A stretch of DNA of 64,000 nucleotides from a virus. The notes beneath the pieces were generated by a model, which was not told where the DNA came from, searched no databases, and worked only from the letters and a program-made list of their open reading frames with translations. The position numbers and the translations under genes are program-made. The first letter of the stretch is position 1. Every line of letters begins with the position of its first letter. The stretch covers positions 64,001 through 128,000 of IMG/VR virus record IMGVR_UViG_3300017792_000017. One strand, given 5' to 3'. Positions 6,547 to 51,824 of this stretch are shown piece after piece.

Positions 6547-7434
6547 TTATACGTTTTTAGTTAAGTGGAGAGCTACTTTCTGCAGATCCATCGGAAGAGT
6601 TTCAAGTACTTGTTTAAAATGAGCAGGACCGTGGTCGAACTCGTTCCCAATATCTGCACCCATCATTGATGAGAAATGGCCCTTACCAAGCTTTGCGATC
6701 TTCTCAAAGGGAACGTCCTTACCGCACAGCTTAACCATCAGTGATGACCGTAGTGAAGCTTCTTTGGTATGGATTGTTTCGTTGTAGAAGTTGTAGCCCT
6801 TAGTGACTAGACCAGCTTGCTTGTCCATTTCTGAAATTGTATCACAAATGTCACGAACTGTCTCTGGGCGAATTTGATGTGGAAGCTTGTGGATTGCAGT
6901 AGCCAGTTTAACGAATGAAGGATTTTTGGTTTCGTAGAAACGATTAGCAAGTGCCTTAACTGCAGCTTCCTTATCCATATACCCATTACCTGAATAGCGT
7001 ACTACAGCTTCGCTAGGCTCAATACCCTTTTCTTTAGCTTCGTCATAAAGCTCAGCAGCTTGCTTTGAAAGAGTACCGTTTACACGAAGACCTGAGAGTT
7101 CGCCTTCGAAGTAAGCTTGCTTGGTCATGTAGTCGTCAGTAGCAATGGCAGCAGCTGTAGCTGTGCGCTGTGCAGCAGCCTTGACCATACGGTCAGTTAG
7201 TGCAGCTACCTCAGTCTGAACGCCATAAGCTTCGACAGCCTTTGCAACTTTATCTAGCGCAAAAACGTCTACGGCCTTGTAAGCGACCTTTTCATGGTAC
7301 TTCATTTGCAGGGCCGTAGCGATGCAAGAGTCCTTGTTGTCAAGGGGCATTTCTTGCTCTACAGAAGCCTGCTTTACAAATGAAGCGGCTTCCGGCACAA
7401 GATCGAGAATTTCTTTAAGTGTGTATGCTAGCAT
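6547..7434 (-). CDS. putative head core protein with many KxA motifs
   Basis: About 12 hydrophobic-x-K-x-A motifs (FVKQAS, LDKVAK, MVKAAA, MTKQAY, LSKQAA, MDKEAA, MDKQAG, HTKEAS...). Confidence 0.65.
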   Translation of the reverse strand: MLAYTLKEILDLVPEAASFVKQASVEQEMPLDNKDSCIATALQMKYHEKVAYKAVDVFALDKVAKAVEAYGVQTEVAALTDRMVKAAAQRTATAAAIATDDYMTKQAYFEGELSGLRVNGTLSKQAAELYDEAKEKGIEPSEAVVRYSGNGYMDKEAAVKALANRFYETKNPSFVKLATAIHKLPHQIRPETVRDICDTISEMDKQAGLVTKGYNFYNETIHTKEASLRSSLMVKLCGKDVPFEKIAKLGKGHFSSMMGADIGNEFDHGPAHFKQVLETLPMDLQKVALHLTKNV

Positions 7435-25683: not shown

Positions 25684-26043
25684 ATGAAGACGCTCAACGG
25701 CATTACCTACGTCCAGCTTAAGACACTCACGACTGCAGAACTCAATGCACTTTGCGCGGCGTATGCTGCAAGCCAAGTTTTCATAGCTATGGAGTCTAGT
25801 GGCTTTGCTGACGAAGGTGAAAGAGATTTTGCAGACAAGTTCATGCAAATTTTCACTCGTCGTGCAGAAGAGATGTTCAATGAAAAAGTCACCGACAAAA
25901 TATATTCGATGATGAGAATTCTCTACGACACGGAAGAGAAGTTCGACATGGCATCTGAAATGACAACTGAAATGGGTAACATCGCAATGATGACTCAGAA
26001 GATGATGAAGCAGATTCATCAAGATGTTCTAGCGATGCGCTAA
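25684..26043 (+). CDS. hypothetical early protein (Met-rich, helical)
   Basis: TGGTATAAG at 25631; AAGGAG RBS; terminator 26046-26078. Confidence 0.75.
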   Translation: MKTLNGITYVQLKTLTTAELNALCAAYAASQVFIAMESSGFADEGERDFADKFMQIFTRRAEEMFNEKVTDKIYSMMRILYDTEEKFDMASEMTTEMGNIAMMTQKMMKQIHQDVLAMR

Positions 26044-26169
26044 AGAAAAAAGCCCAGCTAACAACTGGGCTTTTTTTAGACTTTCAGAAATAAGAAAAGC
26101 CAGGATTTTACCCCGGCTTGTCTTTAGATGGGATCACCTCCTCTCGGAAGTTCTAACCACGCTGAGTGA

Positions 26170-27063
26170 TTAGAAGTTTAGAACAACTGCACCATTTACG
26201 TTACCGATACCAGCACCTACAGCTTCGTAAGTATGGAACTCGATAATGTCTGCTTCGGTCTTCAGGAAGACTGTCGGAGCTTGAAGCTCATAGAACTGAC
26301 CAAGGTAGTTCTGAGGAGCAAAAACGATTGCTTGGTTCGTCGGGAGGATGTTAGCCTTGTTCGTGGTGATGATCTTGTAACCGAAGAAGTTATCAAGAGT
26401 CGCTTCGCCTTGGAACAGTGCTGATGCTGCCGGTGAGCCTACGTCTGTTGCTGCAAAAGTCAGCAGATCAGCGTACATTGATTGTGTCATAAGGATACAA
26501 CCAACAGGTAGCTTGTTCAGAAGCATGAACTTGATACCAGCCATCAGGTTAGCCTTTGTAAAGCCACCAGCGATGGTGTGAACGTTGCTGTTTGCTGTAG
26601 CAATAGCGTTGATGTTTTGATAGAAGTTTACGTCTTCTTGTTCTTGAATATCCTTAACGCTGTTTTCTTGAAGGATAGTACGAATGTCGGTACGGTATGT
26701 AGCGAGTTCGAACTTGCTCTTACGGAAGTCAGCTGATTGGATCTTCTGGAATGTAACTGGGTAACGTTGTGTCTTCCAGTAACGGATTTCCGGACGGCCA
26801 AGGAACGGAGCAGTAGCAGCTACTGAATCAGGTTCCTTTTCAACGATAACCGTTGGTTCTTCAGTCAGTTGGCGATCAAGCTCTGAAGCTGTGATTTGAA
26901 CTGGCGTAAGAATCTTACGGGTAAAGCCGTCTTCACGAAGCTTCTGACGTACGAAAGCTGACATTGCAGCTGAAGCTTCTTTGGTGTGACCTTGGTCAAT
27001 CTTGTCTAGGAAAGATTGATTCAGGAATTGTACGTTTACTGTTTCTGTGTTATATGCGCTCAT
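26170..27063 (-). CDS. probable major capsid protein (HK97-like fold)
   Basis: 297 aa, strongly biased codons, downstream of protease/scaffold/decoration genes; C-terminal YEAVGAGIGN; HTKEAS motif near N-terminus. Confidence 0.7.
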   Translation of the reverse strand: MSAYNTETVNVQFLNQSFLDKIDQGHTKEASAAMSAFVRQKLREDGFTRKILTPVQITASELDRQLTEEPTVIVEKEPDSVAATAPFLGRPEIRYWKTQRYPVTFQKIQSADFRKSKFELATYRTDIRTILQENSVKDIQEQEDVNFYQNINAIATANSNVHTIAGGFTKANLMAGIKFMLLNKLPVGCILMTQSMYADLLTFAATDVGSPAASALFQGEATLDNFFGYKIITTNKANILPTNQAIVFAPQNYLGQFYELQAPTVFLKTEADIIEFHTYEAVGAGIGNVNGAVVLNF

Positions 27064-27075
27064 TTTATTGTCCTG

Positions 27076-27498
27076 TTACGATACTTTGATTGTAATATGA
27101 GCAGTTTGCGTTGAGCTTGCTGCAACAACGTCAAGTACGAAACCGAGAATAGGGTCTGTACCAGCTAGACCCAGAGCGATTTGACCGCTTTTAACAGTAA
27201 CAGGTGAACCAGGCTGATATGAGCCTGCTGCGAAGTTTGAGATGCTTGCAATGAAGTTACCCCAAAGAACAACTGCCTTACCTGAGTAAGCTGATGAGCT
27301 ACTATCGCCGTTACCAACAATTACTAGGCCGACTGAATTACTTGCTGCCGCTGCTGACTTGTCGATGGTGTTGTCTGATTGCTTGGCAACCCAGTCGCCG
27401 TTTTGCAGAGTAACACCTGACTTGATCGGCTCGACACGCTCTAGAGAACCATCATACGGCCAGCCACGGATGATCTCTGCGTTACGTTCCATTAACAT
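27076..27498 (-). CDS. probable capsid decoration/cement protein
   Basis: 140 aa small beta-rich protein directly upstream of MCP. Confidence 0.6.
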   Translation of the reverse strand: MLMERNAEIIRGWPYDGSLERVEPIKSGVTLQNGDWVAKQSDNTIDKSAAAASNSVGLVIVGNGDSSSSAYSGKAVVLWGNFIASISNFAAGSYQPGSPVTVKSGQIALGLAGTDPILGFVLDVVAASSTQTAHITIKVS

Positions 27499-27640
27499 AT
27501 TTATTTCCTTGTATATGTTTCTATTTTTAAATAAACCGAGTAAAGACTATATCTACTCGGCTCAAAATTCTTTCACAACATTTCTATTTTAATGTGGAAA
27601 AATAGTAGTGTGGGAAATCGATTATTTTTAGCTAAAAAAT

Positions 27641-28240
27641 TTAGCTCAGCATGAATTCAAGAAGGGGATCAGTCTTAGGACGAGCAAAGCCTACGCCATT
27701 ACCCATTCCCCACGGTTCATCCATTGCAGATGCAACCTTCTGAAGAACTTCAGGAGAGACTCGTTGGAGTTGTTCCAGATCTTCTTGTGTGAACTGAGCG
27801 GCAGAAGCCAGCTTAGTGATTTGCTCAGGCATCTCTACAGGCACTTCTAGAGCCCTATCGAGTGCAACTTGATGTTCGGTAGCCTGCTTCTCAATCTCAG
27901 CCTTCAGGCCTTCGATTTGGGCTTCTAGAGCATCAACGTATTCAGCTGTCTTGTGCAGAAGTTCAACCGTTGGATTTTCATCTACTTCAAGAACGAAGTT
28001 TGAAAGTTCAGCAACGTTAATGTTTGCTGCTTTAACAAGCTTTACAGCTTCTTCATGATCAACGCCCTTCATAGCTAGAGCTGACGTAGCCTCTTTTTCC
28101 ATGATATGTTGAGCTACTTGATAACGAGCATCTGCATCGCTAAAACCAGCTTGCTTAAGATGTTCGATAGCAACAGCTTCGGGAGTTGCAAGACGAACTG
28201 TTTCAGCGTGGTCTTTGAGGATTGTTGATAGTTTAGTCAT
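27641..28240 (-). CDS. putative scaffold/core protein
   Basis: Acidic, coiled-coil, multiple KxA motifs (MEKEAT, IEKQAT, ITKLAS, LQKVAS). Confidence 0.6.
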   Translation of the reverse strand: MTKLSTILKDHAETVRLATPEAVAIEHLKQAGFSDADARYQVAQHIMEKEATSALAMKGVDHEEAVKLVKAANINVAELSNFVLEVDENPTVELLHKTAEYVDALEAQIEGLKAEIEKQATEHQVALDRALEVPVEMPEQITKLASAAQFTQEDLEQLQRVSPEVLQKVASAMDEPWGMGNGVGFARPKTDPLLEFMLS

Positions 28241-28661
28241 TTGTCTTTTTGCTATGGAGCGGGCTAAAACCTGCATTAGCCATGCGCTTATTGTGATCGA
28301 TATGCCCAGAAATTTTACCAGCTAAAGTAACACCTAGAGAACCGGCGATGAGACCTGCGTTAAATTTTCCAAGTTTTTTTCCAGCAAGTAAAGCTTCTCT
28401 AGAAAAACCTTCTGGCACTCCAGTTGAGAGCATTTTTCTATGAGCAGCCTCTACTAGAGAAGTGCCAGCTTTAGCACCTGCGAATCCTGCAGCTGCCATC
28501 GAGCCTAAAGCTATGCCGGGATGTACGCCTTTGGCTTCATGGTATTTCTTAAAGTCAGATTTATCCAAATTCACGCTTTTGATATTGAAAAACTTCTTAT
28601 CATCTGAGTGAGGCTTAACCTGATAACTTTCAGCAACTTTCTCTAAGTACTTATTGGACAT
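28233..28661 (-). CDS. putative internal head protein with MSNKYLEKVAE leader
   Basis: Leader motif plus Gly/Ala hydrophobic segments. Confidence 0.7.
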   Translation of the reverse strand: MSNKYLEKVAESYQVKPHSDDKKFFNIKSVNLDKSDFKKYHEAKGVHPGIALGSMAAAGFAGAKAGTSLVEAAHRKMLSTGVPEGFSREALLAGKKLGKFNAGLIAGSLGVTLAGKISGHIDHNKRMANAGFSPLHSKKTND

Positions 28662-29076
28662 GTTTGTTAATCTGTTTATTTAGTTTAACACCAGCATAGT
28701 CTGCTGCTAAACCAGCTGCTCCACTTAACGCCATAATTTTAGCGTTGTGAAGTTTGGCACCTTGCCCGAATACCTTAGGCATAGAGTTCATCAGCTTATG
28801 AGCACCAAAGCCTGTAGCTGTGCCCAAACCAGCGATTACGCCAGTGTTGACCAGCTCTTGTTTATGTGTTAAATCCTGCGCAGCTTTATACAACGCTCTG
28901 GTAAAGAGAGTCTTAGCTCCCCGTATCAGTTTTGAACCAGGTGCCGTAATAGGCGCTGGTTCTTTTACTTTCCCTAGGCTTACATCTTTCTTGACAATCA
29001 TACCAGCCGATTTGATGCGACCTTGAGTGTCCATGTCAAAATTAAGACTAGCGATTTTTTCAAGATATTTGTTCAT
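28651..29076 (-). CDS. putative internal head protein with MNKYLEKIAS leader
   Basis: Leader motif plus Gly/Ala hydrophobic segments. Confidence 0.7.
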   Translation of the reverse strand: MNKYLEKIASLNFDMDTQGRIKSAGMIVKKDVSLGKVKEPAPITAPGSKLIRGAKTLFTRALYKAAQDLTHKQELVNTGVIAGLGTATGFGAHKLMNSMPKVFGQGAKLHNAKIMALSGAAGLAADYAGVKLNKQINKHVQ

Positions 29077-29145
29077 AGTTACCTAATAAAAAACCCCTCT
29101 ACATCGAGGATACAGAGGGGTTCTTACTTTATAAAATCAAGCTAG

Positions 29146-29703
29146 TTAGTCTGCTTTAGATTTATGTTTCTTGTCTGCTAGAGCACCTTTGATTGCCGAG
29201 TAGGCTTTTCCGCCAAGGTATCCACCGCCGACAGATCCTGCAACAAGTCCTGGAAGTCCAGCTGCATGAACACCTGCTACAGCACCTGCAGTACCGGTTA
29301 CGAATCCTGACAAGGTACCACCTACTTTATCACCTTTTTTGGATCCAGCATAACCACTTAGTGCACTAAGAAGAGCTTCTTTTTCTAACTCAGAAGCCTT
29401 CTTTTCTACTAGATCAACTGCATTTTCAAAATCCAGACCTGAGTCTACCAGAAGACTTACTGCAGCTTGTTTTTCTTGGTTTTTGTTCTTTTGTACTGCG
29501 GCGCCAACACCTAGACCTAAGACTCCTGCGCCAGTGGCCGCTGCTGCGACCCTAGCCTTATTCAGTGTGCGTGGAGCACCCATAACATTCTTGGGACCCC
29601 CACCTGAGCCTGGAATACGTGTGACTTTTTGAGCTAACGAAGTGCCTGGAACTTTACCCGCTAGTTGCAGGACACCCGCTTCTTTCGTTAGCCCAGCTTT
29701 TTT
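29146..29703 (-). CDS. -1 frame extension of the scaffold-like protein (ORF track lists only 29146-29583)
   Basis: Frame stays open from the slippery site at 29697-29703 to the stop at 29146; contains the same helical repeat as the upstream ORF. Confidence 0.65.
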   Translation of the reverse strand, partial: KKAGLTKEAGVLQLAGKVPGTSLAQKVTRIPGSGGGPKNVMGAPRTLNKARVAAAATGAGVLGLGVGAAVQKNKNQEKQAAVSLLVDSGLDFENAVDLVEKKASELEKEALLSALSGYAGSKKGDKVGGTLSGFVTGTAGAVAGVHAAGLPGLVAGSVGGGYLGGKAYSAIKGALADKKHKSKAD

Positions 29704-30551
29704 ACCAAGTTTACTGCGGTGTCAAAATCGAAGCCAGCTTCGATGAAGTGTGACAGTGCAGCTTGCTTAACTTGTGAAGCTTCTTCACGTTCGATTTCTT
29801 CAGCAGCTTCCTTGACCATGTTTACTGCATCGTCAAATTCAAAGCCTTGTTCTACGAGTGATGAAACTGCAGCAGCCTTTTCTTGACCAGCCGTTACCCA
29901 ACCACCAGTTTGAACTTGGTTAGGAGCTTGTGCACCGATTTGTGCGCCTTCATCCTTAGCAACGCCAGGAGCAGGATTTTGATCAACTGGAGCAGCGCCA
30001 CGAGCCATTGCGTCAGCAACGATTGCGTCGAAGATTTGGTTGATTGTACCACCATTACCCTTGCCGTCTGTGCCGGGTTGGTTCTGGATGATAGCATCTT
30101 GTTCAGCTACTTGAGCTGCAAGATCTTGTTGTGTCTTGTTCGGTACAGCATTACCAATACCGTTAACGGTATTTTGGTCACCTACTGAAGCCAGCTTTTC
30201 AAGAAGAGCTTCGGCTAGTGCCTTGCCTGCGTCAGCAGCTTGTTTGTTCATAGTATCCTCTGGTTTAACTTGATCAAGTTTAATGGATGCAACTTTTTGC
30301 ATTACTTCTTTTGCTAAGTCAGCGCCTTTAGCCGCAGCTTCTTTGACACGTTCATCAGCATCGTTCTTCTCTTTGGCGTCCTTGACTTCTTCCTTAGCTT
30401 CCTTTACATCTTTGTCAGCTTTGTCGATAGCCTTTTCTGCCTTATCTTCATCTTTCTTTTCTTCTTTCTCTGTATCTTCACTAGCTACTTTATGGAGGCC
30501 AGCTTCTTTTTGCAGATCATTAAGAAGACCGTCTAGAGTGAAACTCATCAT
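29688..30551 (-). CDS. putative scaffold/core protein with repeated helical motif and KxA sites
   Basis: Directly downstream of protease; highly charged; about nine KxA motifs. Confidence 0.7.
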   Translation of the reverse strand: MMSFTLDGLLNDLQKEAGLHKVASEDTEKEEKKDEDKAEKAIDKADKDVKEAKEEVKDAKEKNDADERVKEAAAKGADLAKEVMQKVASIKLDQVKPEDTMNKQAADAGKALAEALLEKLASVGDQNTVNGIGNAVPNKTQQDLAAQVAEQDAIIQNQPGTDGKGNGGTINQIFDAIVADAMARGAAPVDQNPAPGVAKDEGAQIGAQAPNQVQTGGWVTAGQEKAAAVSSLVEQGFEFDDAVNMVKEAAEEIEREEASQVKQAALSHFIEAGFDFDTAVNLVKKLG

Positions 30552-30609
30552 GACTAATATCCTTTTTTAATAGGGCTACGTTGAATTGTAGCCTTTCGAA
30601 AATCTTAGG

Positions 30610-32124
30610 TCAATTCTTTTTCTTCTGAACCAACTTAACCATCGCTGTTTTGGCGAGTTTGTAAGTCAGCTTATAGTCAGAAGCAGATTTAACTAAAACT
30701 ATTTTAACACCATCTGAAGCCTTGTTCAATTCTTGCTCTTTCATTTTCCGCTCTATTGCTTGGGTAATGTACCACTTAGCAGCTAGAGCAGCTCCGCCGA
30801 TAGCAGCAATGGCAGTAAGCATCTTCATCAAACTTGACTTATTCCCTTCTTCTGACTTGAGATTCTGTTCACGGAACTTTTCGTAAATCGTAGGTTCGAT
30901 GTGAGGACCGTTGCCGACAAAGCCAACATTAGTACCCTGTACATAACCGTAAGTCGAAGCCTGTTTGTTCAGCGATACACGTTCCTCAACATACTGTGGA
31001 AGATACGAGGCATCCTGCATATGAGGAAGCATAGCATGAACGATACCGATGTTGGGTTCTGTAATTTCACCGAAATCACGGTCGAATTCGGGAATAGCAG
31101 TAAGACCAACCTTATCAAAATATGCAGCAGCCATTGGGCCAATGCCGCGCCCTTCTTCACCCATCAATTTTCTAGCAATCAGTTCAGCGAGAAAACCAAT
31201 CGAAGGGCTAATGCCAAGATGAGCAAAGGTACTAAAAGTCTCATTAAGCTTATAATTTCGAAGAACATCGATAACCGATCCTTGCGGATCACTAACTCGT
31301 GATACAAGATTATCAAGATTAGAATCGATAGATACAACATCGCCATCAATCTCCTTCGTTAATTCTGAAAGCTTTTTAAGAGTAGCACTCTTCTGTAACG
31401 GAAGGTCATTTAGACCAGCCATTAGCGCCTCATCCACTGAACCAATCACTTCGCTTTCAGATGCTACTTTCTGTAGAACTGCGCTAGTTACGTCTGCTGG
31501 ACGAAATACAATAGAGATGTCGAAGAATCGCAATGGAGCCAAGTTAAGCGCCATTACCTTACGACCATCAGGGAAAACCTTACCCAACTGTTCGCTTAGA
31601 TGCTCACAATACTCTTCACGGGTACGAGCTTTGTTACCACAAATTGAACAAACATCGAAAGGTGTACGGCAAGCCATTGAAGTCTTTGGCCAGTCACCGC
31701 TTTCGATACGATCAACGATGTCTGGAGCCTTGTCGTTCCAAAGCTCAGCGATAAGCTCAACGCGGTGCATTCTGTCGTTGTAGACAGAGTACACAACTTG
31801 ACCAATAGCGATTTCGGGATTTTTGTTTACGTGGTTTCTGAAAATATGGGCAGGAGCAGTCTCAAAGGTATTGTGGTAATCAATGAGGTTACTTTCTGGG
31901 AAGTAGTCAGCATTACGGTTTGCACCATAAAACTCTCCAGCACCCATAGCTAGAATGTGAAGATACGTCTTGCCCTGAATGGGCGTTAGTTTAGAAGCGA
32001 ATTCTTGAATGCGAGAATCCGTAGCCTGCTTAATAAGACTGCCTGTAAGATCTTTGGGATCGAGAATAGTTACCTGTGGTTCTTCACGGTAAAAAGAAGA
32101 CGTATCGATTAGTTTAGTTAGCAT
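30610..32124 (-). CDS. probable prohead (maturation) protease with Zn-finger insertion
   Basis: HIFRNH...KTSMAC...CSICGN...CEH...FDISIVFRPAD matches the HK97/herpes-type protease layout (His, Ser, then S-x-V-x-x-PA); C-terminal part rich in KxA. Confidence 0.7.
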   Translation of the reverse strand: MLTKLIDTSSFYREEPQVTILDPKDLTGSLIKQATDSRIQEFASKLTPIQGKTYLHILAMGAGEFYGANRNADYFPESNLIDYHNTFETAPAHIFRNHVNKNPEIAIGQVVYSVYNDRMHRVELIAELWNDKAPDIVDRIESGDWPKTSMACRTPFDVCSICGNKARTREEYCEHLSEQLGKVFPDGRKVMALNLAPLRFFDISIVFRPADVTSAVLQKVASESEVIGSVDEALMAGLNDLPLQKSATLKKLSELTKEIDGDVVSIDSNLDNLVSRVSDPQGSVIDVLRNYKLNETFSTFAHLGISPSIGFLAELIARKLMGEEGRGIGPMAAAYFDKVGLTAIPEFDRDFGEITEPNIGIVHAMLPHMQDASYLPQYVEERVSLNKQASTYGYVQGTNVGFVGNGPHIEPTIYEKFREQNLKSEEGNKSSLMKMLTAIAAIGGAALAAKWYITQAIERKMKEQELNKASDGVKIVLVKSASDYKLTYKLAKTAMVKLVQKKKN

Positions 32125-32147
32125 AGTTCTATTTTACAGGCGAATCT

Positions 32148-32957
32148 TTATTTTGACTCTTTCTTCGGATGCCACTTGTCCATAATTTTCTTGGCAAGAT
32201 ATGCACCGGCTACTGGGATTGCAGCCCCAACAGCATAAGAGCCCATTTGCGAAGGTAGAAGCTTGCGTACATACTTATTAGCAGCGGCAGCTCCCTTGTG
32301 GGCTTTAATTCCTTTGTATGCATGGTAATTAGCAGCAGCTTCTTCTCTTAAAGTTAGTGCGCCAGGAATAGCTGCAACGGCTGGAGCGTAATCACGAGTC
32401 TTGTCATTTGAAAGAGCTGCAATGGTAGCAACACTACTTACTCCGGGCATTTTGGCAATTGGAGCCAACGCTTTAAGCTTTCCGTAACTTTGGAAGTCTT
32501 TGGCGTGGCCAAGTTCATGCATTAGAACGTCAGCGTTCTTAACAGTCTTTCCACCATTTCTTAATCCTACTACAAAGTCTTTTTGAGCACCTACCCCTCT
32601 GGTACGTAGAAACGCAGGTCCAGGAGCGTCATTACTAGCTAAGTGTTTATAAATCTTTCCCAAAGGATTCTTTGAAAAAGTCATTTTATCTACATTGTGC
32701 TTTCTAGTATTGAAAGTAGTGGTTTTATGTAAACCATTATCTTTCATAAACTTTCTAAGGGTGTGGTGATCTGCTCCAGAATCGCTGTGAGAAGCTGATA
32801 TTGCAGATACAACTTTTCTAGATACTGCATGCTGTAGGGCACCACCGGCTACTCCCGCAGAAAAGCCTCCAAGCAAGGAGGCTCCTACTGCTGAAACAAC
32901 TTTAGACTTATCTTTGTTCTTGTCTGATGCTATTTTTTCTAAATACTTATTTTGCAT
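32148..32957 (-). CDS. putative virion zinc metallopeptidase with MQNKYLEKIAS leader
   Basis: VLMHELGHAKD (HExxH) plus downstream LREEAAA glutamate; hydrophobic segments. Confidence 0.7.
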   Translation of the reverse strand: MQNKYLEKIASDKNKDKSKVVSAVGASLLGGFSAGVAGGALQHAVSRKVVSAISASHSDSGADHHTLRKFMKDNGLHKTTTFNTRKHNVDKMTFSKNPLGKIYKHLASNDAPGPAFLRTRGVGAQKDFVVGLRNGGKTVKNADVLMHELGHAKDFQSYGKLKALAPIAKMPGVSSVATIAALSNDKTRDYAPAVAAIPGALTLREEAAANYHAYKGIKAHKGAAAANKYVRKLLPSQMGSYAVGAAIPVAGAYLAKKIMDKWHPKKESK

Positions 32958-33261
32958 TTTGGTCAGGGACTAATTTCAGATTTACGGTTACCTTAGGCTT
33001 TTTCCTAAGAGCCTCTGAAATACCCTTAAGCTCGTTCAGCGATTGCGCCTCAAGTACGCCACGTTTTTTATTGTCAAGCTTATTCTCTAGGCTATTACTA
33101 TAATTAGCAGCGCCTAGAGAGAGACCGGCAGCAGACATACCCAGACCAACTTTAGAAGTTGTTGAGCTTCGTTTCCAGCCCTTCGCAAAACTTTTGCCGA
33201 AACCAGTTATGGATTCAGCTACAGCTTTTGCGGATGCGATTTTCTCTAGGTACTTATTCAT
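32947..33261 (-). CDS. putative internal head protein with MNKYLEKIAS leader
   Basis: Leader motif. Confidence 0.7.
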   Translation of the reverse strand: MNKYLEKIASAKAVAESITGFGKSFAKGWKRSSTTSKVGLGMSAAGLSLGAANYSNSLENKLDNKKRGVLEAQSLNELKGISEALRKKPKVTVNLKLVPDQNAK

Positions 33262-33263
33262 AT

Positions 33264-33812
33264 TTATAGGAACGACTTAGGTGAGAACGAACTGTTATCT
33301 TTCCAACGACCTTCTAGATCTGTAAGACTCTTGATAGTCATAATATCAATGCCGTCACCATGAACTGCGTTGGTAAGAACAGATTGTAGCAGATTAGGAT
33401 CAGTTGCAACCATAGGTGCAAACTTATAGATTGTATCTGCGTAATGCTCTACCTTAGAACGCTCAGCGGTCTGAAGGATATGAGAGTTTGAAATAGCTTG
33501 TAGAAGAGCCTTCTTAAAGCGATTATAGCGAAATTGATCTACTACGCTCTTCGCTGCACCTGAAAACATCCAAAGACCTGTACCTACTGCAAGTCCACCT
33601 GCTGATTTACCAGCTTGTTCCAGAAAGCCCTTTGCAACGCTTTCGCCTGGACCCATAACACGGGATTGAGCAGCATTAGCTTGTTTTTCAACTTCTTCAG
33701 CAGCTTCTTTTTCAAGCATTACATGCGTAACAAAACCGGCTAGAAATTCATCAGCCAGTTTTTCGTCTCCAGCAAACTTCTCAAGACCCATTTGCTTAAC
33801 TTCATTTAACAT
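33264..33812 (-). CDS. putative head protein
   Basis: LEKFAG, LEKEAA, VEKQAN motifs. Confidence 0.65.
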   Translation of the reverse strand: MLNEVKQMGLEKFAGDEKLADEFLAGFVTHVMLEKEAAEEVEKQANAAQSRVMGPGESVAKGFLEQAGKSAGGLAVGTGLWMFSGAAKSVVDQFRYNRFKKALLQAISNSHILQTAERSKVEHYADTIYKFAPMVATDPNLLQSVLTNAVHGDGIDIMTIKSLTDLEGRWKDNSSFSPKSFL

Positions 33813-33840
33813 TTTATGTTGTTCCTTTATTCAATCTTTA

Positions 33841-34923
33841 TTAATCACGCTGGAGAGCGCTCCAGACATCGTTACTTCTACCGGTTGTCTTGTCTACACC
33901 TGGATCATAGAAAGCTGCATCAGCTATAGGACCAGCAGCATTAAACAAAGACTTACCAGCGCTTACTGTAGTCTTACCGATAGCCTTTGCTGTATTTTTT
34001 ATGGTGGGTTTACCAAGTGCTGAAAGATTGTCTTTAACAGACTTATTAACAGCTCCGCCTACTGCCTTTGCTACTCTCATCGGAGAAGATGCTACAGTAC
34101 CGATTATCTTACCTGCTGCGTATGCCGGGTTAGCTTTTTGAGCAGTAACCTTAGCAGAAGCTGCAGCTCCGTTCATGGCCCTAGTGAACATGTTTGATTT
34201 TACACCTTGCGCAGCATCAGCAGCGCGTTTCTGAAGACCAGAACGCTCACGTTGTTCACGAACAAGTTCACGAGCTTGTTTGTACAGATCTGCAAAAGCA
34301 TTTACTTCTTTAAGCTGAGCTGATTTAAATAGACCTAGCTCACCAATATCACGATACGCTTTAACTTCGCCAGAAACGAGGACAGAAAGCTCTGAGAACG
34401 TTTGTTCTTCTGTGACACATGCCAGCTTATCCATCCATGCATCATCCTTGCTAAGAGCCTTTGCGGCCTTCACAAGCGTATCTGCTAAAACGATAGCATC
34501 AATCTCTAGGCGATCAAGAGCTTCTTTGTTAGCTGCTGCTGACTTTATAAGATATGTGAGCTTCTCTGCTTCTACTAATTCTAGTTCGTGGCTTGAAGCT
34601 TCTTTCTCAAGATTTGCTTGAAGCTCTTCTGCTTTTACTTGTGCTACTTTTTCTTGAAAACCTTCAGGAATCGTAGCTGCTGACATTACTTCAGCAAACT
34701 TAGCTAGGGGGAATTCTACTGTGCGGTCTTCTGCATGTTGAAGAACCTTCAAATAAGCAATGTTATTCGTTGATTCAACAGCACGCTTCACTTGTTCTAC
34801 ATTCAGTTCGTAAGCGGCTGCTTGTTTAGCAAGGCCCTTGCTCAGAGGAACTTTATTGTTCAGGAAATCTTCAACTGCTTGAACTGAGATATCCCGAATA
34901 AGTTCAGGGGTTACGTTTGCCAT
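33841..34923 (-). CDS. putative head core protein
   Basis: Multiple KxA motifs, basic Ala-rich C-terminus; TAAAATA at 34946-34952. Confidence 0.65.
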   Translation of the reverse strand: MANVTPELIRDISVQAVEDFLNNKVPLSKGLAKQAAAYELNVEQVKRAVESTNNIAYLKVLQHAEDRTVEFPLAKFAEVMSAATIPEGFQEKVAQVKAEELQANLEKEASSHELELVEAEKLTYLIKSAAANKEALDRLEIDAIVLADTLVKAAKALSKDDAWMDKLACVTEEQTFSELSVLVSGEVKAYRDIGELGLFKSAQLKEVNAFADLYKQARELVREQRERSGLQKRAADAAQGVKSNMFTRAMNGAAASAKVTAQKANPAYAAGKIIGTVASSPMRVAKAVGGAVNKSVKDNLSALGKPTIKNTAKAIGKTTVSAGKSLFNAAGPIADAAFYDPGVDKTTGRSNDVWSALQRD

Positions 34924-35068
34924 TCTTGGCTCCATTCTGTGACTTTATTTTAACCTTGGCTGACAAGGATATAAAAGGCTTCTTGGGATGCTTAATAGCC
35001 TTTTGACCTTTACGCATCGTAAGCTGACCCTTCTTTTTAGACGCTATTTTTTCTAGGTATATGTTCAT
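34904..35068 (-). CDS. 54-aa highly basic protein with MNIYLEKIAS leader
   Basis: MNIYLEKIASKKKGQLTMRKGQKAIKHPKKPFISLSAKVKIKSQNGAKNGKRNP; starts just after upstream stop; absent from ORF track. Confidence 0.7.
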   Translation of the reverse strand: MNIYLEKIASKKKGQLTMRKGQKAIKHPKKPFISLSAKVKIKSQNGAKNGKRNP

Positions 35069-35070
35069 AA

Positions 35071-35760
35071 TTAGTCGTTACTATCTGAGTCAACCTTATA
35101 TAGGTCGCCATTCAATTCAGCCATACTGAAACCTTCCAAGCTATCAAACCCTTCAAAGTCAGGTACAACCTCACGAATAGCGATCTCAAGGTCTTTCTTA
35201 GCAGCGCCAGCATCGGTAGTCCAAATCTTCAACAGACGCGCAATGTCCATTGATAGCTTCGTCCACTTAGTTGCTTCACGGCTTGACTCTGATGCATTCT
35301 GGCTGAACATGGCTTCACGGCTCTTATAGACACATGTCGTAAAGAGATCGACTAGACCTTCAACCGGAGAAATTGTTACTTGTTTGCCCATTCTCCAAGA
35401 GATGAAAGGCAAACCTTGACTAAGTGCCCATGTTTTCAGGGCAGCTTCTGTTTTGTCACGCACATCCAAGAGTTCCATCTTGCTTAGTTTATCCAGTTCC
35501 ATAACATCATAAAAAATGTCGTTGTACATCTGGATAACATCCGCTGGAATTTCAAGGATGTGGGAAATAGCGTTTACGTCGTTGCTACAAAGCAAACTAG
35601 CTTCGACGTAACCTTTTTTGAGTTTCGATTCTTTTAAAGGTATGGCTTTCAGATAGGCGGTACGTTCAGGGCAATCCACTTCAGATAATAGGATATCTAC
35701 TAGTGGATCAACGCCCCGAACATTGTTACGGATGTGTAATTCTCTCTGATTAACGCGCAT
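35071..35760 (-). CDS. hypothetical late protein
   Basis: 229-aa ORF in operon. Confidence 0.75.
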   Translation of the reverse strand: MRVNQRELHIRNNVRGVDPLVDILLSEVDCPERTAYLKAIPLKESKLKKGYVEASLLCSNDVNAISHILEIPADVIQMYNDIFYDVMELDKLSKMELLDVRDKTEAALKTWALSQGLPFISWRMGKQVTISPVEGLVDLFTTCVYKSREAMFSQNASESSREATKWTKLSMDIARLLKIWTTDAGAAKKDLEIAIREVVPDFEGFDSLEGFSMAELNGDLYKVDSDSND

Positions 35761-35770
35761 ATCTTCATGT

Positions 35771-37738
35771 TTACTCTTTTACCGACATTTGTTTGCCGGG
35801 TGCTTCCGTATCAATAGAATCACTGACAGCAGCCATTTCTTTCAGCTTAATGAAATTGTCACCAAGCAGACGGTACACAGTCTTAAGCGAAGCTAGGAAA
35901 GCGTATACTTGATCGGCATCATTTGCTTCAGCAAGGCGGCTAATGTGAACACGAGCCATGAACAGAGTACGACCAAGCTTATCAATTGCTTCTTCAATGT
36001 CTGGCAGATATTCATTGATCAGCTCAAACATATCAGGAGCTTGAAGAAGTTCAGAAATAATCGTCGCTTCCGTTACCTGTGCATCACCAGCCTTAAGAGA
36101 TTCTTGAACGTTAGGAATCATGTTTCCGTTTGGCTTGTAAGCCCCGTTCATCGTAACTTCATCTGGTTCAATGCCAGTTAGGTCTTCTTCACCATAACTA
36201 GGAATCTTGCCATCGTCTGAATCTGTTGTGAAGCCAGCGCGCTTAGTCATGTAGACCTTTGCAAACTTAACTTCCTTAGCCTGTTTTACAAATGATGCTG
36301 CATGTTCAGGATCAATACCTTCACCTACGACTAGACGCTTCATTACGTCAGCTTCGGCACCAGCAGTCTTACCATTGATAGCAAATTCAATACCATCGTA
36401 GCCAATATTCATTTCTTCACCAAGCCACTGAATATCAGTCAGCTTACGCTTGTGTGATGCTGCATTGACGTTTACTTCTAGCTCACCGGTAATGTCTCTA
36501 CGCAGTTTGAGAATAACTGAATTATGCGGAATATAGATCTCATGCTTTGAGCCCTTTCCACAAATACTGATTTCACCTGCAAGATTACGATAACCATATA
36601 CTGTTACTGCACCATATCCTGTTTGATATGATGAGCCAGTTGCTTCTACTCCGAGGCTGCTAAGAGCTACACGGTTAATAGAAATCGGACCCAGGAATCT
36701 ACCTGAGTTAAGCACGATTACGATTTTATCACCAGATTCTACATCTTTCAACATTACTGGTGGATTATATTGGAAAAGAGTCTTTAGGACTTCTTTTCTG
36801 TCAAGGTTGTCGCCTACCGTAATAAAGCTACCTGAAAGCGCATAGTCGCCTGATGTAAAAATTGCAAGAGATGAAGTAGGATCCTCATAGCTACGACCGT
36901 AGCTCGTGCTCACACCTCTTGGGCTAGAACCCACAGTATACATTTTCGGAACGTACGCATCACGAGACGAGCCATTAGTAAGCATAATTTCAAAATCTTT
37001 ATCTCCGTCAAGATTTGTGATGTTACGGAAGGTCCCTGAAGAATTGAAATCATGCACACATACAGCTACTCGTGAGGAAGGTTGCTCGCCTGAAATATGA
37101 TACCCGTCGTTCAGGATTGAGGAGATCTGATCTGGGGTCATGCTTGGGTTTGCATCTGTGACTACTGAGATTGGAGCCTCATTAGTAGCAGCAGCCATAC
37201 TTTGCGGCTTTTTCTTTAGAACGTCAAAGATTGCCTTCAGTCCATACATCTGATCGAGCGAGTCGTAAACCGACTTTTCAGCTGCGATCTTTTCCATAGT
37301 AACCTGCTTTAGATAGTCAGGCATACTGGCTAGAAAGTCGGTAAGACGACTTGTACTAGCATAAACATGTTTACCAGTGCGCGGAGGATTAATCATGTCC
37401 GCAACACTAGGATTACCAACGACAGTCTTCGGAATCTCCGTAGGCTTGCCTTGTTCGAGTTGGCTTGAAGCGACAACCATCGTCACTGTCTTCTTGGTCA
37501 GAGGGAAGAATTTCTTGTCTGTATCAAAGAAGATTGAATCAATCGGATATACGTTATCGTTTTTAGCTACGACTGGGATGAAGAAGATTTCACTTCCGAC
37601 TCTCAATACGAAGACACCGACTTGAATGCCAGTGTCGTCTTGAAGTTCCTCAGAAACGTCTTTAAACGTGATAATGTAATTTCCTAGCTCCGGAACAGTT
37701 TGAAGCAGTTTTGCAAGAGCGATGTCGGAGAAATCCAT
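35771..37738 (-). CDS. large putative head protein
   Basis: 655 aa, MEKIAA/FVKQAK/MTKRAG motifs; TAAAATA at 37778-37784. Confidence 0.65.
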   Translation of the reverse strand: MDFSDIALAKLLQTVPELGNYIITFKDVSEELQDDTGIQVGVFVLRVGSEIFFIPVVAKNDNVYPIDSIFFDTDKKFFPLTKKTVTMVVASSQLEQGKPTEIPKTVVGNPSVADMINPPRTGKHVYASTSRLTDFLASMPDYLKQVTMEKIAAEKSVYDSLDQMYGLKAIFDVLKKKPQSMAAATNEAPISVVTDANPSMTPDQISSILNDGYHISGEQPSSRVAVCVHDFNSSGTFRNITNLDGDKDFEIMLTNGSSRDAYVPKMYTVGSSPRGVSTSYGRSYEDPTSSLAIFTSGDYALSGSFITVGDNLDRKEVLKTLFQYNPPVMLKDVESGDKIVIVLNSGRFLGPISINRVALSSLGVEATGSSYQTGYGAVTVYGYRNLAGEISICGKGSKHEIYIPHNSVILKLRRDITGELEVNVNAASHKRKLTDIQWLGEEMNIGYDGIEFAINGKTAGAEADVMKRLVVGEGIDPEHAASFVKQAKEVKFAKVYMTKRAGFTTDSDDGKIPSYGEEDLTGIEPDEVTMNGAYKPNGNMIPNVQESLKAGDAQVTEATIISELLQAPDMFELINEYLPDIEEAIDKLGRTLFMARVHISRLAEANDADQVYAFLASLKTVYRLLGDNFIKLKEMAAVSDSIDTEAPGKQMSVKE

Positions 37739-37817
37739 TTATAACAGTCCTTTGAAATATAAGCTCAATTATGCAGATATTTTAGCAGAATAACCTGCAT
37801 TTAGTCTACGTTTGATT

Positions 37818-38600
37818 TTAGCACCCATCTGGATGCTTATTATCGCCTGAGGCAACGGTGATTGCGGGTCCTGCTGCAGCGCCTTCTGCACTCTTATTAG
37901 CTACTGCTACTCCACCCGGCCCATTGGCTTTTGTAAAGTTAGCTCCGTAGTATATAGTAGATACGTATGCTTCGGAAGAACTACCGTTACCCTTGTCGTT
38001 AGAAGCCAATCCGATATATCCTCGGAATGTTGCTTGCATACGACTGTCATAAGTAAACTGACCAATTGTAAACTTATTGCCTGCTTGCTTCACAAGTTTG
38101 TACTTCTGTTCAAGAACAACTAAACCAGCAAGGATTTGATCCTCAACTGTACTTTGACCGTTTAGTTTTGCCGCTAGACTTTCTCCAGGATTTACACAAA
38201 GTCTTGAAACTAAGTCTGGTCTCGCTATTTCAACTAGGCACTTACCTAGCTTCTGAGATCCGCCTTTGACGTGGTTCCAACCCATACTTTGCATAACGCC
38301 CCAAGCTCGTAAGCCTTGATCGATATTTACCGATTGCTGGCTAATACCCTTTCCAATCACAGATTGTACAGCACTAGCATTGATATAATCCCTTGCCCCA
38401 GATGAGTTTACAGGGTTAAGAGATGGACCTTGAGCATTGACATTGAAATGGCTCTCAGTTTGTATTTGAGCCATTATCAATTTTACAACGTCTGTTTCTT
38501 TACCCAAGGTATTAGCAAAGAACTGTTGAAGTAAATTGCTAATCGTAGTGCTACAAATCTGTTTAATCGAGGTATCGATAACTGATCCTGTAGCTGCCAT
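37818..38600 (-). CDS. lytic transglycosylase/lysozyme-like protein
   Basis: AQIQTESHFNVNA (catalytic Glu, ES motif) and AWGVMQ (GLMQ-like). Confidence 0.75.
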   Translation of the reverse strand: MAATGSVIDTSIKQICSTTISNLLQQFFANTLGKETDVVKLIMAQIQTESHFNVNAQGPSLNPVNSSGARDYINASAVQSVIGKGISQQSVNIDQGLRAWGVMQSMGWNHVKGGSQKLGKCLVEIARPDLVSRLCVNPGESLAAKLNGQSTVEDQILAGLVVLEQKYKLVKQAGNKFTIGQFTYDSRMQATFRGYIGLASNDKGNGSSSEAYVSTIYYGANFTKANGPGGVAVANKSAEGAAAGPAITVASGDNKHPDGC

Positions 38601-40426
38601 TAGTATTGGCCTCCTGGACCTTCACCAAACTCACTGCCGAGAATGTACGGAGTGATAGGCTCTGTGCTATGTACATCTGATTCCGCACCAACTGCAGCGC
38701 TTTCACGAAGCGTATTCTTAAGACCTGAGAATGAGAGCTTTGAAACCCAGTTATCATCAAGAAGCTTAGCTGTCTTAAGACCAGGTACAATCGGAGTAAC
38801 TGTCAGGCCAGTATTGGCTACATGAACAGTTTTAACGCCGTGGCTCTTGAGATCATCGATATGATTGCCATCTAACAATGTACCGGCTGTAAGCTCGTGA
38901 ACACCCTTTGCAAGAAGCTTTCCTTCAGCCTTATCGAGAGATACTTCGCCAGCGGTATTAGTAAGATATTTCTGAACTGTGTTTACGTCAATCTTCTGGC
39001 CTGGGAGAAAGCCTGTCTCACCTGGATCTTGCACTTCTACGTGCTTGATAAGATTCTTTGCAATCAATTCGAAGTGACGAGGATCAAGATCTGAACCATA
39101 GATACCACGTAGTTCGTGAGCCATGTGAATACGACCAGCTCCGAGACCCTTTAGGCCTACCAGTTTACGAGGGTTAACAACACCAGTTGAAAGAGCATCA
39201 CCCTTTAGAACATTATCACCTACAGCTACTTTCAAACCCTGTACTCGTGGTACGAAGTGCATCTGCTCATTAACGAATACTTGATGGTCACCAAGAGGCG
39301 TTTGCTTAATTGCTGAAACTACACCATTGATATTCGTGATCGTTGCTTCATCCTTGAAGTTCTCGGCAGGGTTACGGAGCAAGTTTGAAGCTTGTTCATA
39401 TGAGTTACCTTTACGAGCGCCAACAGACGCCTTGTGCTTTGTTGAAAGCATCGACTGCGTCAGAACTTCTGAAACTGATTGGGCCGCAATGACCCCGACA
39501 TTTTCACCAATTTCTGGAAGCTTACCGTTAGCCATTAGGCCATAGCACTTTTTGCAAATGCCTTGATGAGCTTCGCATGTAAGTGAGCTACGGGCCTTGA
39601 TACCTTTTTTGCCAGAATTAACAAGTTCTTTGTAGTAGTGTTCGTCAATCAGAGTATTAGTGCCAGCTTCGTAACGGCCAATAGCGCCTTTCTTATCTGT
39701 GATAGAAAGCAGAATACCATTAGTTGTTCCACAGTCATCTACAGTGATTACTTCATGAAAAGTAGTCGGAGAAAGTTCTTTGAATAGAGCGCCAGGAAGA
39801 GCAGTTGAAAGCTGTGATAGTACAGTAGAACCACGGCCCATGTACGACATGCTCAGCATTTCTGCGGGAGACATCCCTTTTGCAAATGATGACTTAATTA
39901 CATATGGAACAAGTTCACCCTTCAAATTAATTGACATAAGTGGTGTGGAAGTACCGGTAGCCAACTGAGTTGGATTACCACGAGCGCCAGTACGTGCCAT
40001 TTTCGCAGCAGTAGATCCCTTTGATAGAAGATAGTCAAGATTCTGCTTCTCAATCTTAGTATTGTATGCACCGGTCAATGCGCCAAGCTCATCGTTCTCT
40101 TTAGTCTTAGGAAGCTTCTTAGCGAAAATCTGATGAACCTTTGTTTCGAATTCATCGATAATAGCCTGACGTTCATCACTTTCATTAATATAGTCCGTGA
40201 GCGGAGTTGTAGCACCGATGGCCGTAGCTTTATCGAAGAACTTTTTACCAAGATCATTTATAGTCTCGTGACTATTTGTACCACCGTACTTTAAAAGTAC
40301 ATTTACGAGATCGCTAATACCCTTCTTATCCAAGGGACGATATACGTCGTAATTATCCCTAGCCTCTTGAGTAGGCAATTCGGACTTTAGCTTCAGTGCA
40401 CCGGCTGTTGTGAATCGTTCTGTCAT
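38600..40426 (-). CDS. rpoC: phage RNA polymerase beta' subunit, C-terminal part
   Basis: TTAG start, SGARG-like TGARGN, DCGT, RSSLTC...ICKKCYG, GENVGVIAAQSVSE..TQ, HFELI. Confidence 0.9.
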   Translation of the reverse strand: MTERFTTAGALKLKSELPTQEARDNYDVYRPLDKKGISDLVNVLLKYGGTNSHETINDLGKKFFDKATAIGATTPLTDYINESDERQAIIDEFETKVHQIFAKKLPKTKENDELGALTGAYNTKIEKQNLDYLLSKGSTAAKMARTGARGNPTQLATGTSTPLMSINLKGELVPYVIKSSFAKGMSPAEMLSMSYMGRGSTVLSQLSTALPGALFKELSPTTFHEVITVDDCGTTNGILLSITDKKGAIGRYEAGTNTLIDEHYYKELVNSGKKGIKARSSLTCEAHQGICKKCYGLMANGKLPEIGENVGVIAAQSVSEVLTQSMLSTKHKASVGARKGNSYEQASNLLRNPAENFKDEATITNINGVVSAIKQTPLGDHQVFVNEQMHFVPRVQGLKVAVGDNVLKGDALSTGVVNPRKLVGLKGLGAGRIHMAHELRGIYGSDLDPRHFELIAKNLIKHVEVQDPGETGFLPGQKIDVNTVQKYLTNTAGEVSLDKAEGKLLAKGVHELTAGTLLDGNHIDDLKSHGVKTVHVANTGLTVTPIVPGLKTAKLLDDNWVSKLSFSGLKNTLRESAAVGAESDVHSTEPITPYILGSEFGEGPGGQY

Positions 40427-51455: not shown

Positions 51456-51824
51456 TTATTTTATATAAGTCAGCATAATAAGGTCCCCGGCATACAGATC
51501 TAAATCTTCTGGTAGTATAAGGACGTTACTAACTACTTCATAACAAGTTCTGGATTGGAGAAATCCATTTATAAACAACATTGTTCCTAGCGTAGGAACA
51601 TCTGGTAAAGATAAATTTTGTGCACCATCAAAAGCCAGAGTAAACTCGGCTTGTTCTAGGGTAAACGATGATGGTGAACTGTCTCTTTCTTGTGTTGGAG
51701 GAGCTACAACTCCCACCGGAGTAGTGGGAGGAGTAGTTACTATCTGATCAATATCATAGTCATCATCCACAATATCTGTAAGATCAGATAGCCCCCTTAT
51801 AAACCTATTGGGATTCGTGATCAT
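51456..51824 (-). CDS. small virion-type protein
   Basis: C-terminal LFINGFLQ...Y...GD motif similar to end of the fibre protein. Confidence 0.55.
   Translation of the reverse strand: MITNPNRFIRGLSDLTDIVDDDYDIDQIVTTPPTTPVGVVAPPTQERDSSPSSFTLEQAEFTLAFDGAQNLSLPDVPTLGTMLFINGFLQSRTCYEVVSNVLILPEDLDLYAGDLIMLTYIK

Follow-up and report, generated by a model that had tools for sequence, protein, structure and literature searches.

The window analysed here, a stretch of 64,000 nucleotides (nt) of viral DNA, covers positions 64,001 to 128,000 of the IMG/VR virus record IMGVR_UViG_3300017792_000017 (144,968 bp, estimated to be 79% complete). Its head module is encoded on the minus strand and consists of a protease-like gene, a scaffold-like gene, several small genes and the gene of the major head protein. 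The scaffold-like gene lies between the prohead protease and the major capsid protein, an order also found in Salmonella phage Arash, and a candidate programmed −1 ribosomal frameshift site close to its 3′ end is the subject of this work. The two frames, the signals and the parts of the predicted products were located as follows.

29688..30551, minus strand: frame-0 open reading frame (ORF), predicted short isoform P0001, 287 amino acids (aa), 30.3 kDa, pI 4.5 (ORF translation)
29697..29703, minus strand: slippery heptamer A_AAA_AAG, in the X_XXZ_ZZN phase of the ORF 29688-30551 (sequence)
29703-29700, minus strand: conserved tetramer A_AAA (GUA_AAA), present in 16 of the 16 sequences compared below
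29688..29690, minus strand: frame-0 stop TAA, within the 5′ arm of the hairpin (sequence)
29631..29694, minus strand: 3′ hairpin (fold and alignment)
29146..29697, minus strand: −1 frame extension, 183 codons plus stop, 17.7 kDa, pI 9.8 (as read after the slip)
29494..29553, minus strand: Ala/Gly-rich hydrophobic linker RVAAAATGAGVLGLGVGAAV in the extension (alignment; a similar linker precedes the last repeat in fused homologues)
29386..29478, minus strand: third helical repeat QEKQAAVSLLVDSGLDFENAVDLVEKKASEL, homologous to the C-terminal repeat of fused relatives
29149..29385, minus strand: variable tail with an LEKEA motif, a Gly-rich hydrophobic segment and a basic end (alignment of extensions)

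The 3′ end of the frame-0 ORF reads, on the minus strand, GTA (29705-29703), AAA (29702-29700), AAG (29699-29697), CTG, GGC and TAA (29690-29688), and the codons thereby confirmed the ORF end and the in-frame heptamer at 29703-29697 given in a preliminary description of this DNA. The short form consists of an acidic helical N-terminal part followed by two helical repeats, and it ends in ..VNLVKKLG*. In the −1 frame, no stop lies between a TGA about 8 codons 5′ of the heptamer and the stop at 29148-29146, so that the two frames overlap by about 11 codons with the slippery site inside the overlap. The +1 frame, by contrast, closes after 15 codons in the window. After a slip, 183 codons would be read (about 185 had been estimated), beginning with ..LVKK|AGLTKEAG.., a start that had been proposed and was found in the translation; in the window the same long-form sequence results whichever of the two Lys codons slips. 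The predicted long isoform has 468 aa and 47.9 kDa, compared with 30.3 kDa for the short one. The further copy of the helical repeat announced for the −1 frame corresponds to the third repeat listed above.

Sixteen distinct short-form DNA sequences were compared: the window itself (WIN), L001, L005, L009, L010, L011, L030-L035, L037 and L046-L048. They were drawn from JGI, ENA and Logan assemblies and share 64–99% protein identity; a pattern scan of IMG/VR for the site returned no contigs beyond those already in the set. The layout was kept in all 16, with GTA AAA, the frame-0 stop 9–12 nt further on and a −1 frame that stays open for 100–283 codons where the contig allows, while the +1 frame closes within 15–23 codons. 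The Val-Lys dipeptide at the site is written GTA AAA in 16/16, against 0/16 for the paralogous Val-Lys of repeat 1 and 3/45 for the other Val-Lys dipeptides. In the same genes GTA accounts for 33% of Val codons and AAA for 46% of Lys codons, and the pair would be expected at a frequency of about 0.15. The constancy of GTA AAA, set against this usage and against the paralogous dipeptides, points to selection acting on the nucleotides and not on the protein.

The codon after GTA AAA is more variable. It is AAG in eight sequences (WIN, L001, L005, L009, L010, L011, L034 and L047) and AAA in two (L046 and L048), giving a canonical heptamer in 10/16; the others have AGA (L030), AGG (L033), ACA (L031 and L037) or CGT (L032 and L035, also L036, which is near-identical to L035). 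The invariant element is therefore the tetramer A_AAA. In bacteria, the repertoire of −1 sites includes the heptamers A_AAA_AAG and A_AAA_AAA and A_AAA tetramers with a 3′ structure; among insertion sequence (IS) elements A_AAA tetramers are well represented, and 72% of the heptamers are A_AAA_AAG or A_AAA_AAA (PMC4066793). Judged by their sequences, the slip-site variants of the 16 members fall inside this known repertoire. The dnaX/IS3-type signal of the preliminary description was upheld as far as A_AAA and the 3′ hairpin are concerned, both of which are conserved in 16/16, whereas the full heptamer is limited to ten members. The heptamer by itself is unremarkable, with 31 copies in the window where 26 are expected; since it is not rare, the case rests on the combination of features and on their conservation in relatives.

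The stem proposed for the window was recovered with its arms, GGGCTAACGAA (29694-29684) and TTCGTTAGCTC (29641-29631), forming a lower helix of 11 pairs, one of them G-U. Above it, an 8-nt internal loop and an upper helix (GTGTC 29675-29671 with GGCAC 29646-29642) were found, and the apical part is variable. The minimum free energy of the hairpin is −26.8 kcal/mol (z −2.97), and 1 of 200 shuffled sequences folds as well. Folding gave the same two-helix hairpin in all 16 sequences: sixteen pairs are formed in 94.9% of the alignment cells, compared with 28–41% when the partners are slid. Two-sided changes, counted among related sequences, were found at pair 37-98 (CG in 13, UG in one, UA in two), pair 50-93 (UA in 14, CG in two) and pair 51-92 (GC in 15, AU in one). 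Both arms are kept even in L009, whose loop and loop-encoded peptide are wholly different. Around the frame-0 stop, CTGGGCTAA is invariant in 15/16, with CAGGGCTAA in L048.

The extension behaves as coding sequence from its very beginning. In the 41 aligned codons before the ATG at 29583 of the window, the substitutions are mostly synonymous in the −1 frame; between WIN and L005 the proportion of synonymous differences (pS) is 0.41 and that of nonsynonymous differences (pN) 0.06, and the pooled pN/pS is 0.36. Before the first ATG of the window pS is 0.44, against 0.70 further downstream, and this lowering fits an extra constraint from RNA structure. No position of an ATG, GTG or TTG codon is conserved across the extensions of the 16 sequences, and in L009 (101 codons) and L034 (100 codons) none of the three codons occurs anywhere in the extension; at this place in L034, the source gene caller called no gene over 348 nt. 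The independent use of ATG 29583, considered in the preliminary description, was not borne out: the ATG is absent from L001 (..NILGE..) and L005 (..NALGE..), which have Ile-Leu and Ala-Leu in its place. This substitution pattern marks the −1 frame as protein-coding from the frame-0 stop onward, and in most members this region has no initiation site of its own.

Within the extension, the alignment identified the third repeat as the most conserved block. The tail is present in WIN, L005, L010, L031 and L037, and it is absent from nine relatives (L001, L009, L011, L032-L035 and L046, plus L036), in which the extension ends right after the third repeat. One further helical repeat is found in each of the extensions of L005, L010 and L037. 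The Gly-rich segment that the long form had been said to add is thus real in the window phage; it belongs to a variable module that some relatives lack in their extension.

More than 135 homologues of P0001 were found in metagenomes, and they fall into two length groups. The closest (64–99% identity) have 286–303 aa and end in ..LVK(K/R/T)LG, ..VKKHLG or ..VKKLQG. Most of the others are single ORFs of 310–470 aa ending in a further repeat, ..GREKKAA..GVDFD.A..LV.AKS.ELYG, and it is with this last repeat of the long homologues that the repeat of the extension aligns best. In BLASTP the third repeat matched P0042 with 65% identity over 31 aa (E 5e-9) and P0083 with E 8e-7. Three repeats in one frame are also present in the sister lineage L004/P0034, in Arash gp223 and in the homologue of Vibrio phage D69. 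The junction of the fused forms has the consensus LVK[QSEK]A[GS]; a slip on the A-run yields LVKKAG, which matches it, and the frame-0 sequence LVKKLG does not.

In a FastTree phylogeny of the shared N-terminal part, 19 short forms were placed in one clade (support 99) that lies among the long forms. A distant short form, P0052, ends in ..VKQLS. Nested inside the short-form clade are the long forms P0014, P0016, P0017 and P0018 (L022, L023 and L024 represent P0014 and P0016), whose C-terminal half is unrelated to the extension of the clade and which have neither the A-run (..GAA CTG ACA AAG ATC..) nor the hairpin. A secondary replacement of the module by recombination is a plausible origin of these four proteins, judging from their sequences. 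Deletion of the C from GTA AAA CAA GCT GGG, which encodes the common fused junction VKQAG, yields exactly GTA AAA AAG CTG GGC, and the present arrangement appears to have arisen by such a one-base loss from ancestral GTA AAA CAA GCT GGG. The loss of this single C would both create the slippery run and make a −1 shift necessary to regain the old frame.

The invariance of GTA AAA, the conserved hairpin, the coding extension without a start and the fused homologues with a matching junction are the observations behind the reading of the A-run as a frameshift site. The most probable interpretation, and one held with considerable confidence, is that a programmed −1 ribosomal frameshift near the end of the scaffold-like or prohead-core gene of an Arash-like phage yields a short and a long isoform, as had been proposed; the comparisons of slip site, hairpin, coding signature and fused homologues all support it. 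At least 15 relatives most likely share the same short/long arrangement. Most ribosomes would read GUA AAA AAG CUG GGC UAA and release the acidic 287-aa short form. A fraction of them would pause at the hairpin a few nt downstream, and tRNA-Lys would re-pair one base back on A_AAA(_AAG). The −1 frame would then be read for 183 codons to give the 468-aa long form ..NLVKK-AGLTKEAG.., which would gain the Ala/Gly-rich linker, the third helical repeat and, in the window phage, the Gly-rich basic tail. The slippage, its rate and the fixed ratio of isoforms given in the preliminary description are predictions, and the long form would be a minor, stoichiometrically set component of head assembly.

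Several observations weigh against this frameshift. Six of the 16 members are without the canonical heptamer, having AGA, AGG, ACA or CGT after A_AAA. In E. coli, Z_ZZN tetramers require a 3′ stimulator and then shift at 0.26–5.6%, A_AAG being by far the most active and A_AAA the weakest of the active tetramers (Sharma et al., 2014; PMC4066793), so the tetramer-only members may shift at a low or very low rate. The 15 nt 5′ of the site vary among the 16 sequences, and no conserved GGAG or AGGA, and hence no conserved Shine-Dalgarno-like stimulator, was found there. Such an upstream stimulator is present in dnaX and IS911 and is not obligatory. The stem begins only 2 nt 3′ of the heptamer in most members, when the usual spacing is longer; the spacing taken for comparison was roughly 5–9 nt between the shift codon and the structure. 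The spacer measures 5 nt when counted from the first AAA codon, that is, from the GUA_AAA tetramer, and about 4 nt from the heptamer if the two basal pairs, which are weak or not conserved, are open; in the subclade of L011, L046 and L048 a 3-nt insert makes it 5 nt from the heptamer. Moreover, the stability of the hairpin is modest in comparison with other 90-nt windows of the same gene (z about −1.8), and since both arms are coding, their conservation may in part reflect protein constraint. Stability was not decisive in separating the frameshift clade from the fused relatives either (mean z −1.8 vs −1.1), some of which score much like the window, because the Ala/Gly-coding linkers of the fused forms are also GC-rich. 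Finally, L011, L046 and L048 have TAATG, with an ATG overlapping the frame-0 stop, where coupled re-initiation would be allowed.

This last point leads to the explanation by two separate genes, in which translation of the extension would begin separately, either by re-initiation or coupling at or near the stop of frame 0 or at an internal start codon (for example ATG 29583), and the A-run and the hairpin would be incidental. Besides the TAATG of these three sequences and the ATG of the window, the gene callers of the databases speak for it, in that they list pieces of the downstream region as small genes of their own. The explanation is viable for the three TAATG sequences only, as the codon at that position is ACG in 13/16, and it meets two members without any start codon and ATG positions that are not conserved elsewhere. 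The coding constraint reaches up to the frame-0 stop, 5′ of every candidate start, and neither the GTA AAA in all 16 members nor the match to the fused junction would be explained. Two separate genes were therefore considered improbable. In L011 (3850-3947), L046 (3353-3459) and L048 (1305-1408) a single C-to-T change keeps the stem pair, as U-A or U-G, and creates TAATG, and frameshifting and coupled re-initiation may coexist in this subclade.

A different route into the −1 frame was given still less weight. Either tRNA-Gly in the P site would slip on G_GGC with UAA in the A site, giving ..KKLG-LTKEAG.., or the polymerase would slip on the A-run during transcription. The invariance of CTGGGCTAA in 15 members, the sequence ..QANLGLMGK.. 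of L004, which can be aligned with ..KKLG|LTKE.., and the missing heptamer in six members would fit such a route. With GGC in the P site, however, the ribosome would already have opened the hairpin, which then could no longer stimulate the slip; re-pairing from GGC to GGG is near-cognate only, the majority fused consensus VKxAG fits a slip on the A-run, and the synonymous invariance of GTA AAA points to the A-run as well. Transcriptional slippage is unlikely because 4–6 A are too short for efficient stuttering of RNA polymerase. The least likely explanation of all, and one with hardly any weight, is a decaying gene or an assembly artefact, in which a 1-nt homopolymer indel broke a continuous gene and the downstream part is non-functional or erroneous. 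Single-frame homologues do exist, homopolymers are prone to indels and the loss of one base from GTA AAA CAA GCT would give this very sequence. Nevertheless, the arrangement recurs in all 16 distinct sequences, which were assembled independently (JGI, ENA and Logan); substitutions change the length of the A-run between 4 and 7 and never restore the single frame, and the extension has a pN/pS of about 0.3 with no internal stops over 100–283 codons. The sequencing indel in the A-run that the preliminary description had allowed for is excluded by the same assemblies, all of which keep the −1 relation.

The proposed frameshift, with an A-run slip site, is similar to E. coli dnaX (tau/gamma) and to OrfAB of the IS3 family (IS911, IS3 and IS150) in having A_AAA_AAG, A_AAA_AAA or A_AAA in frame 0, a stable 3′ stem-loop and an overlapping −1 ORF without its own start, with two products, predicted in the present case, from one mRNA. 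Unlike those systems, the scaffold-like gene lacks a conserved Shine-Dalgarno-like stimulator, its stem starts 2 nt 3′ of the heptamer in most members and the gene product is a protein of phage head assembly; the shift shortens the dnaX product, but would lengthen the present one by 183 aa. The lambda tail assembly chaperone gpG/gpGT and the capsid proteins of T7 (10A/10B) and Lactobacillus phage A2 (references in PMC5221750) offer further parallels: in each, a −1 shift close to the 3′ end of a gene for an abundant structural or assembly protein yields a minor form with an extended C-terminus. As in the capsid protein with an Ig domain of MSTV1-like archaeal viruses (PMC11375127), the extension is directly fused in frame in some relatives. 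The present gene differs from the phage capsid and tail-chaperone cases in being a scaffold-like or core gene between protease and capsid protein, and from the Ig-domain extensions in that no new fold is added: the extension brings a third copy of a module of which the short form has two. Mechanistically the case belongs to the known dnaX/IS3 type, and what is new is the gene context; no report of a frameshifted scaffold gene was found in a full-text literature search of incomplete coverage.

The genes and signals that surround the scaffold-like gene were the following.

30610-32124, minus strand: protease-like gene (504 aa, PHROG head maturation protease; phrog_18299 and phrog_2774)
30585..30613, minus strand: promoter-like site TTGACC-17-TACAAT, upstream of the scaffold-like gene (consensus scan only)
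29087..29120, minus strand: terminator-like hairpin with T-run, the first past the gene start, 3′ of the extension stop
26170-27063, minus strand: major head (capsid) protein (phrog_2522)

The consensus scan found no promoter-like site between frame 0 and the −1 frame. The first terminator-like hairpin on the minus strand follows the extension stop and not the frame-0 stop; in L001 a terminator-like element is likewise located 3′ of the extension, and in the fused relatives such hairpins are 3′ of their single stop. No tRNA genes were found in the window. No family for the frame-0 or the −1 product emerged from PHROGs or Pfam.

Through the protease (45–47% identity), the nearest cultured relatives are Salmonella phage Arash (181 kb) and Vibrio phages D69, D181 and D148. 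Only the protease retrieved them: a blastn search with the locus and a tblastn search with P0001 found nothing among GenBank phages, so the relation to Arash gp223 rests on synteny and motifs. Arash gp223, annotated as a ‘structural protein’, and its homologue in Vibrio phage D69 directly follow the protease-like gene and share with P0001 an N-terminal ..LDSLI.. leader with K-x-A-S motifs and helical repeats of the form G-x-x-F-[DE]-x-A-[VF]-E-L-V-K-E-A. In contrast to the gene of the window, their three repeats stand in one frame, and they have no A-run, hairpin, Ala/Gly-rich linker or Gly-rich tail. Arash has been described as an orphan myovirus whose virion proteome includes RNA polymerase subunits, and gp223 was detected in purified virions by mass spectrometry (PMC10585845). 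The window also encodes RNA polymerase beta-like (Rpb2 domain 6, E 2e-63; 51805-55206) and beta′-like (Rpb1 domain 5; 38600-40426) proteins, both on the minus strand.

The term scaffold-like is a positional label only, given that no known scaffold family was matched and that gp223 peptides occur in virions; at least fragments of a gp223-type protein may stay in the head. No similarity to a characterised scaffolding protein was found with PHROG, Pfam, a PDB profile search or Foldseek. AlphaFold modelled P0034, a fused homologue, as entirely helical with a mean predicted local distance difference test (pLDDT) score of 60; only the repeats are confident (pLDDT 82–95), and they are modelled as helix-turn-helix hairpins. 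Foldseek of this model against PDB gave nothing at E<=0.001, and the extension modelled alone (mean pLDDT 48) was unusable. The profile search of the family against PDB sequences returned a weak UBA-domain match only (2dai_A, E 0.0037). The repeat motif G-F-D-F-x-x-A-V, which occurs at 29386-29478 and in the two C-terminal repeats of P0001, is UBA-like, and the fold search gave no confirmation of this. Just upstream of the capsid gene, the ORF 27641-28276 (minus strand) encodes a second helical protein, in which the related motifs ..KQAGFSDADA.. and ..GVDHEEAVKLVKAA.. occur together with a stretch resembling a coiled coil. This protein may be a paralogue of the repeat module or else the actual scaffold.

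Additionally, the motif hydrophobic-x-K-x-A-[SGAL], a pattern chosen post hoc once the sequences had been seen, was counted six times in the scaffold-like gene (0.8 expected) and four times in the extension (0.8 expected), and the trans-frame junction itself recreates hydrophobic-x-K-x-A. This motif is a candidate cleavage code of the protease. Cuts by the putative head protease at LVKKA|G, LTKEA|G and LEKEA|L, which would free the extension inside the prohead, fit the positions of the motif and are not proved by them. Elsewhere in the window, the motif is present five times in 33841-34935 (1.2 expected), six times in 6547-7434 (0.6 expected) and three times in the protease; its enrichment is confined to certain ORFs of the head module (26000-38600) and to 6547-7434, and nearly all other ORFs are without it.

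A second shared element was observed in small, otherwise unrelated proteins that start with M(x)NKYLEKIA(S/A), encoded at 28651-29076, 28233-28661, 32148-32957 and 32947-33261 (minus strand) and likewise at L001:5239-5664, L004:5169-5705 and L005:4906-5355. This leader resembles the capsid targeting sequence of the T4 internal proteins, MKTYQEFIAE, and is possibly a tag for head loading and cleavage. One of the tagged proteins, of 269 aa (32148-32957), contains HELGH (..VLMHELGHAKDF..), a motif of the zinc-metalloprotease type, and its gene adjoins that of the prohead protease.

A more far-reaching proposal, put forward as tentative and rather unlikely in its entirety, is that the frameshift serves as a device for dosing capsid cargo. 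A set fraction of the subunits would carry an extra coat- or core-binding repeat and an exchangeable basic Gly-zipper module, and the protease would release the cargo inside the prohead at the K-x-A motifs to which the shift itself gives rise at the junction. The device would have originated in the one-base deletion, which was then fixed and tuned by the hairpin. Under this proposal the relatives would carry none, one or two exchangeable modules.

If the programmed frameshift is real, frameshifting in phage morphogenesis, documented for tail chaperones and capsid proteins, would also reach the internal machinery of assembly. It would do so in a poorly known group of phages of about 180 kb, related to the ‘orphan’ Arash and packaging their own RNA polymerase. 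The extension is divided or overlooked by the gene calls of public assemblies. With its single-frame, heptamer, tetramer-only and stop-start overlap forms, the family is a natural series that is usable for studying the birth and the tuning of a frameshift signal, and it lets the isoform ratio be examined as a control of head size or of cargo loading. Should the cargo-dosing proposal also be true, a frameshift mutation would here have been recruited, in nature, for the regulation of a gene of virion assembly.

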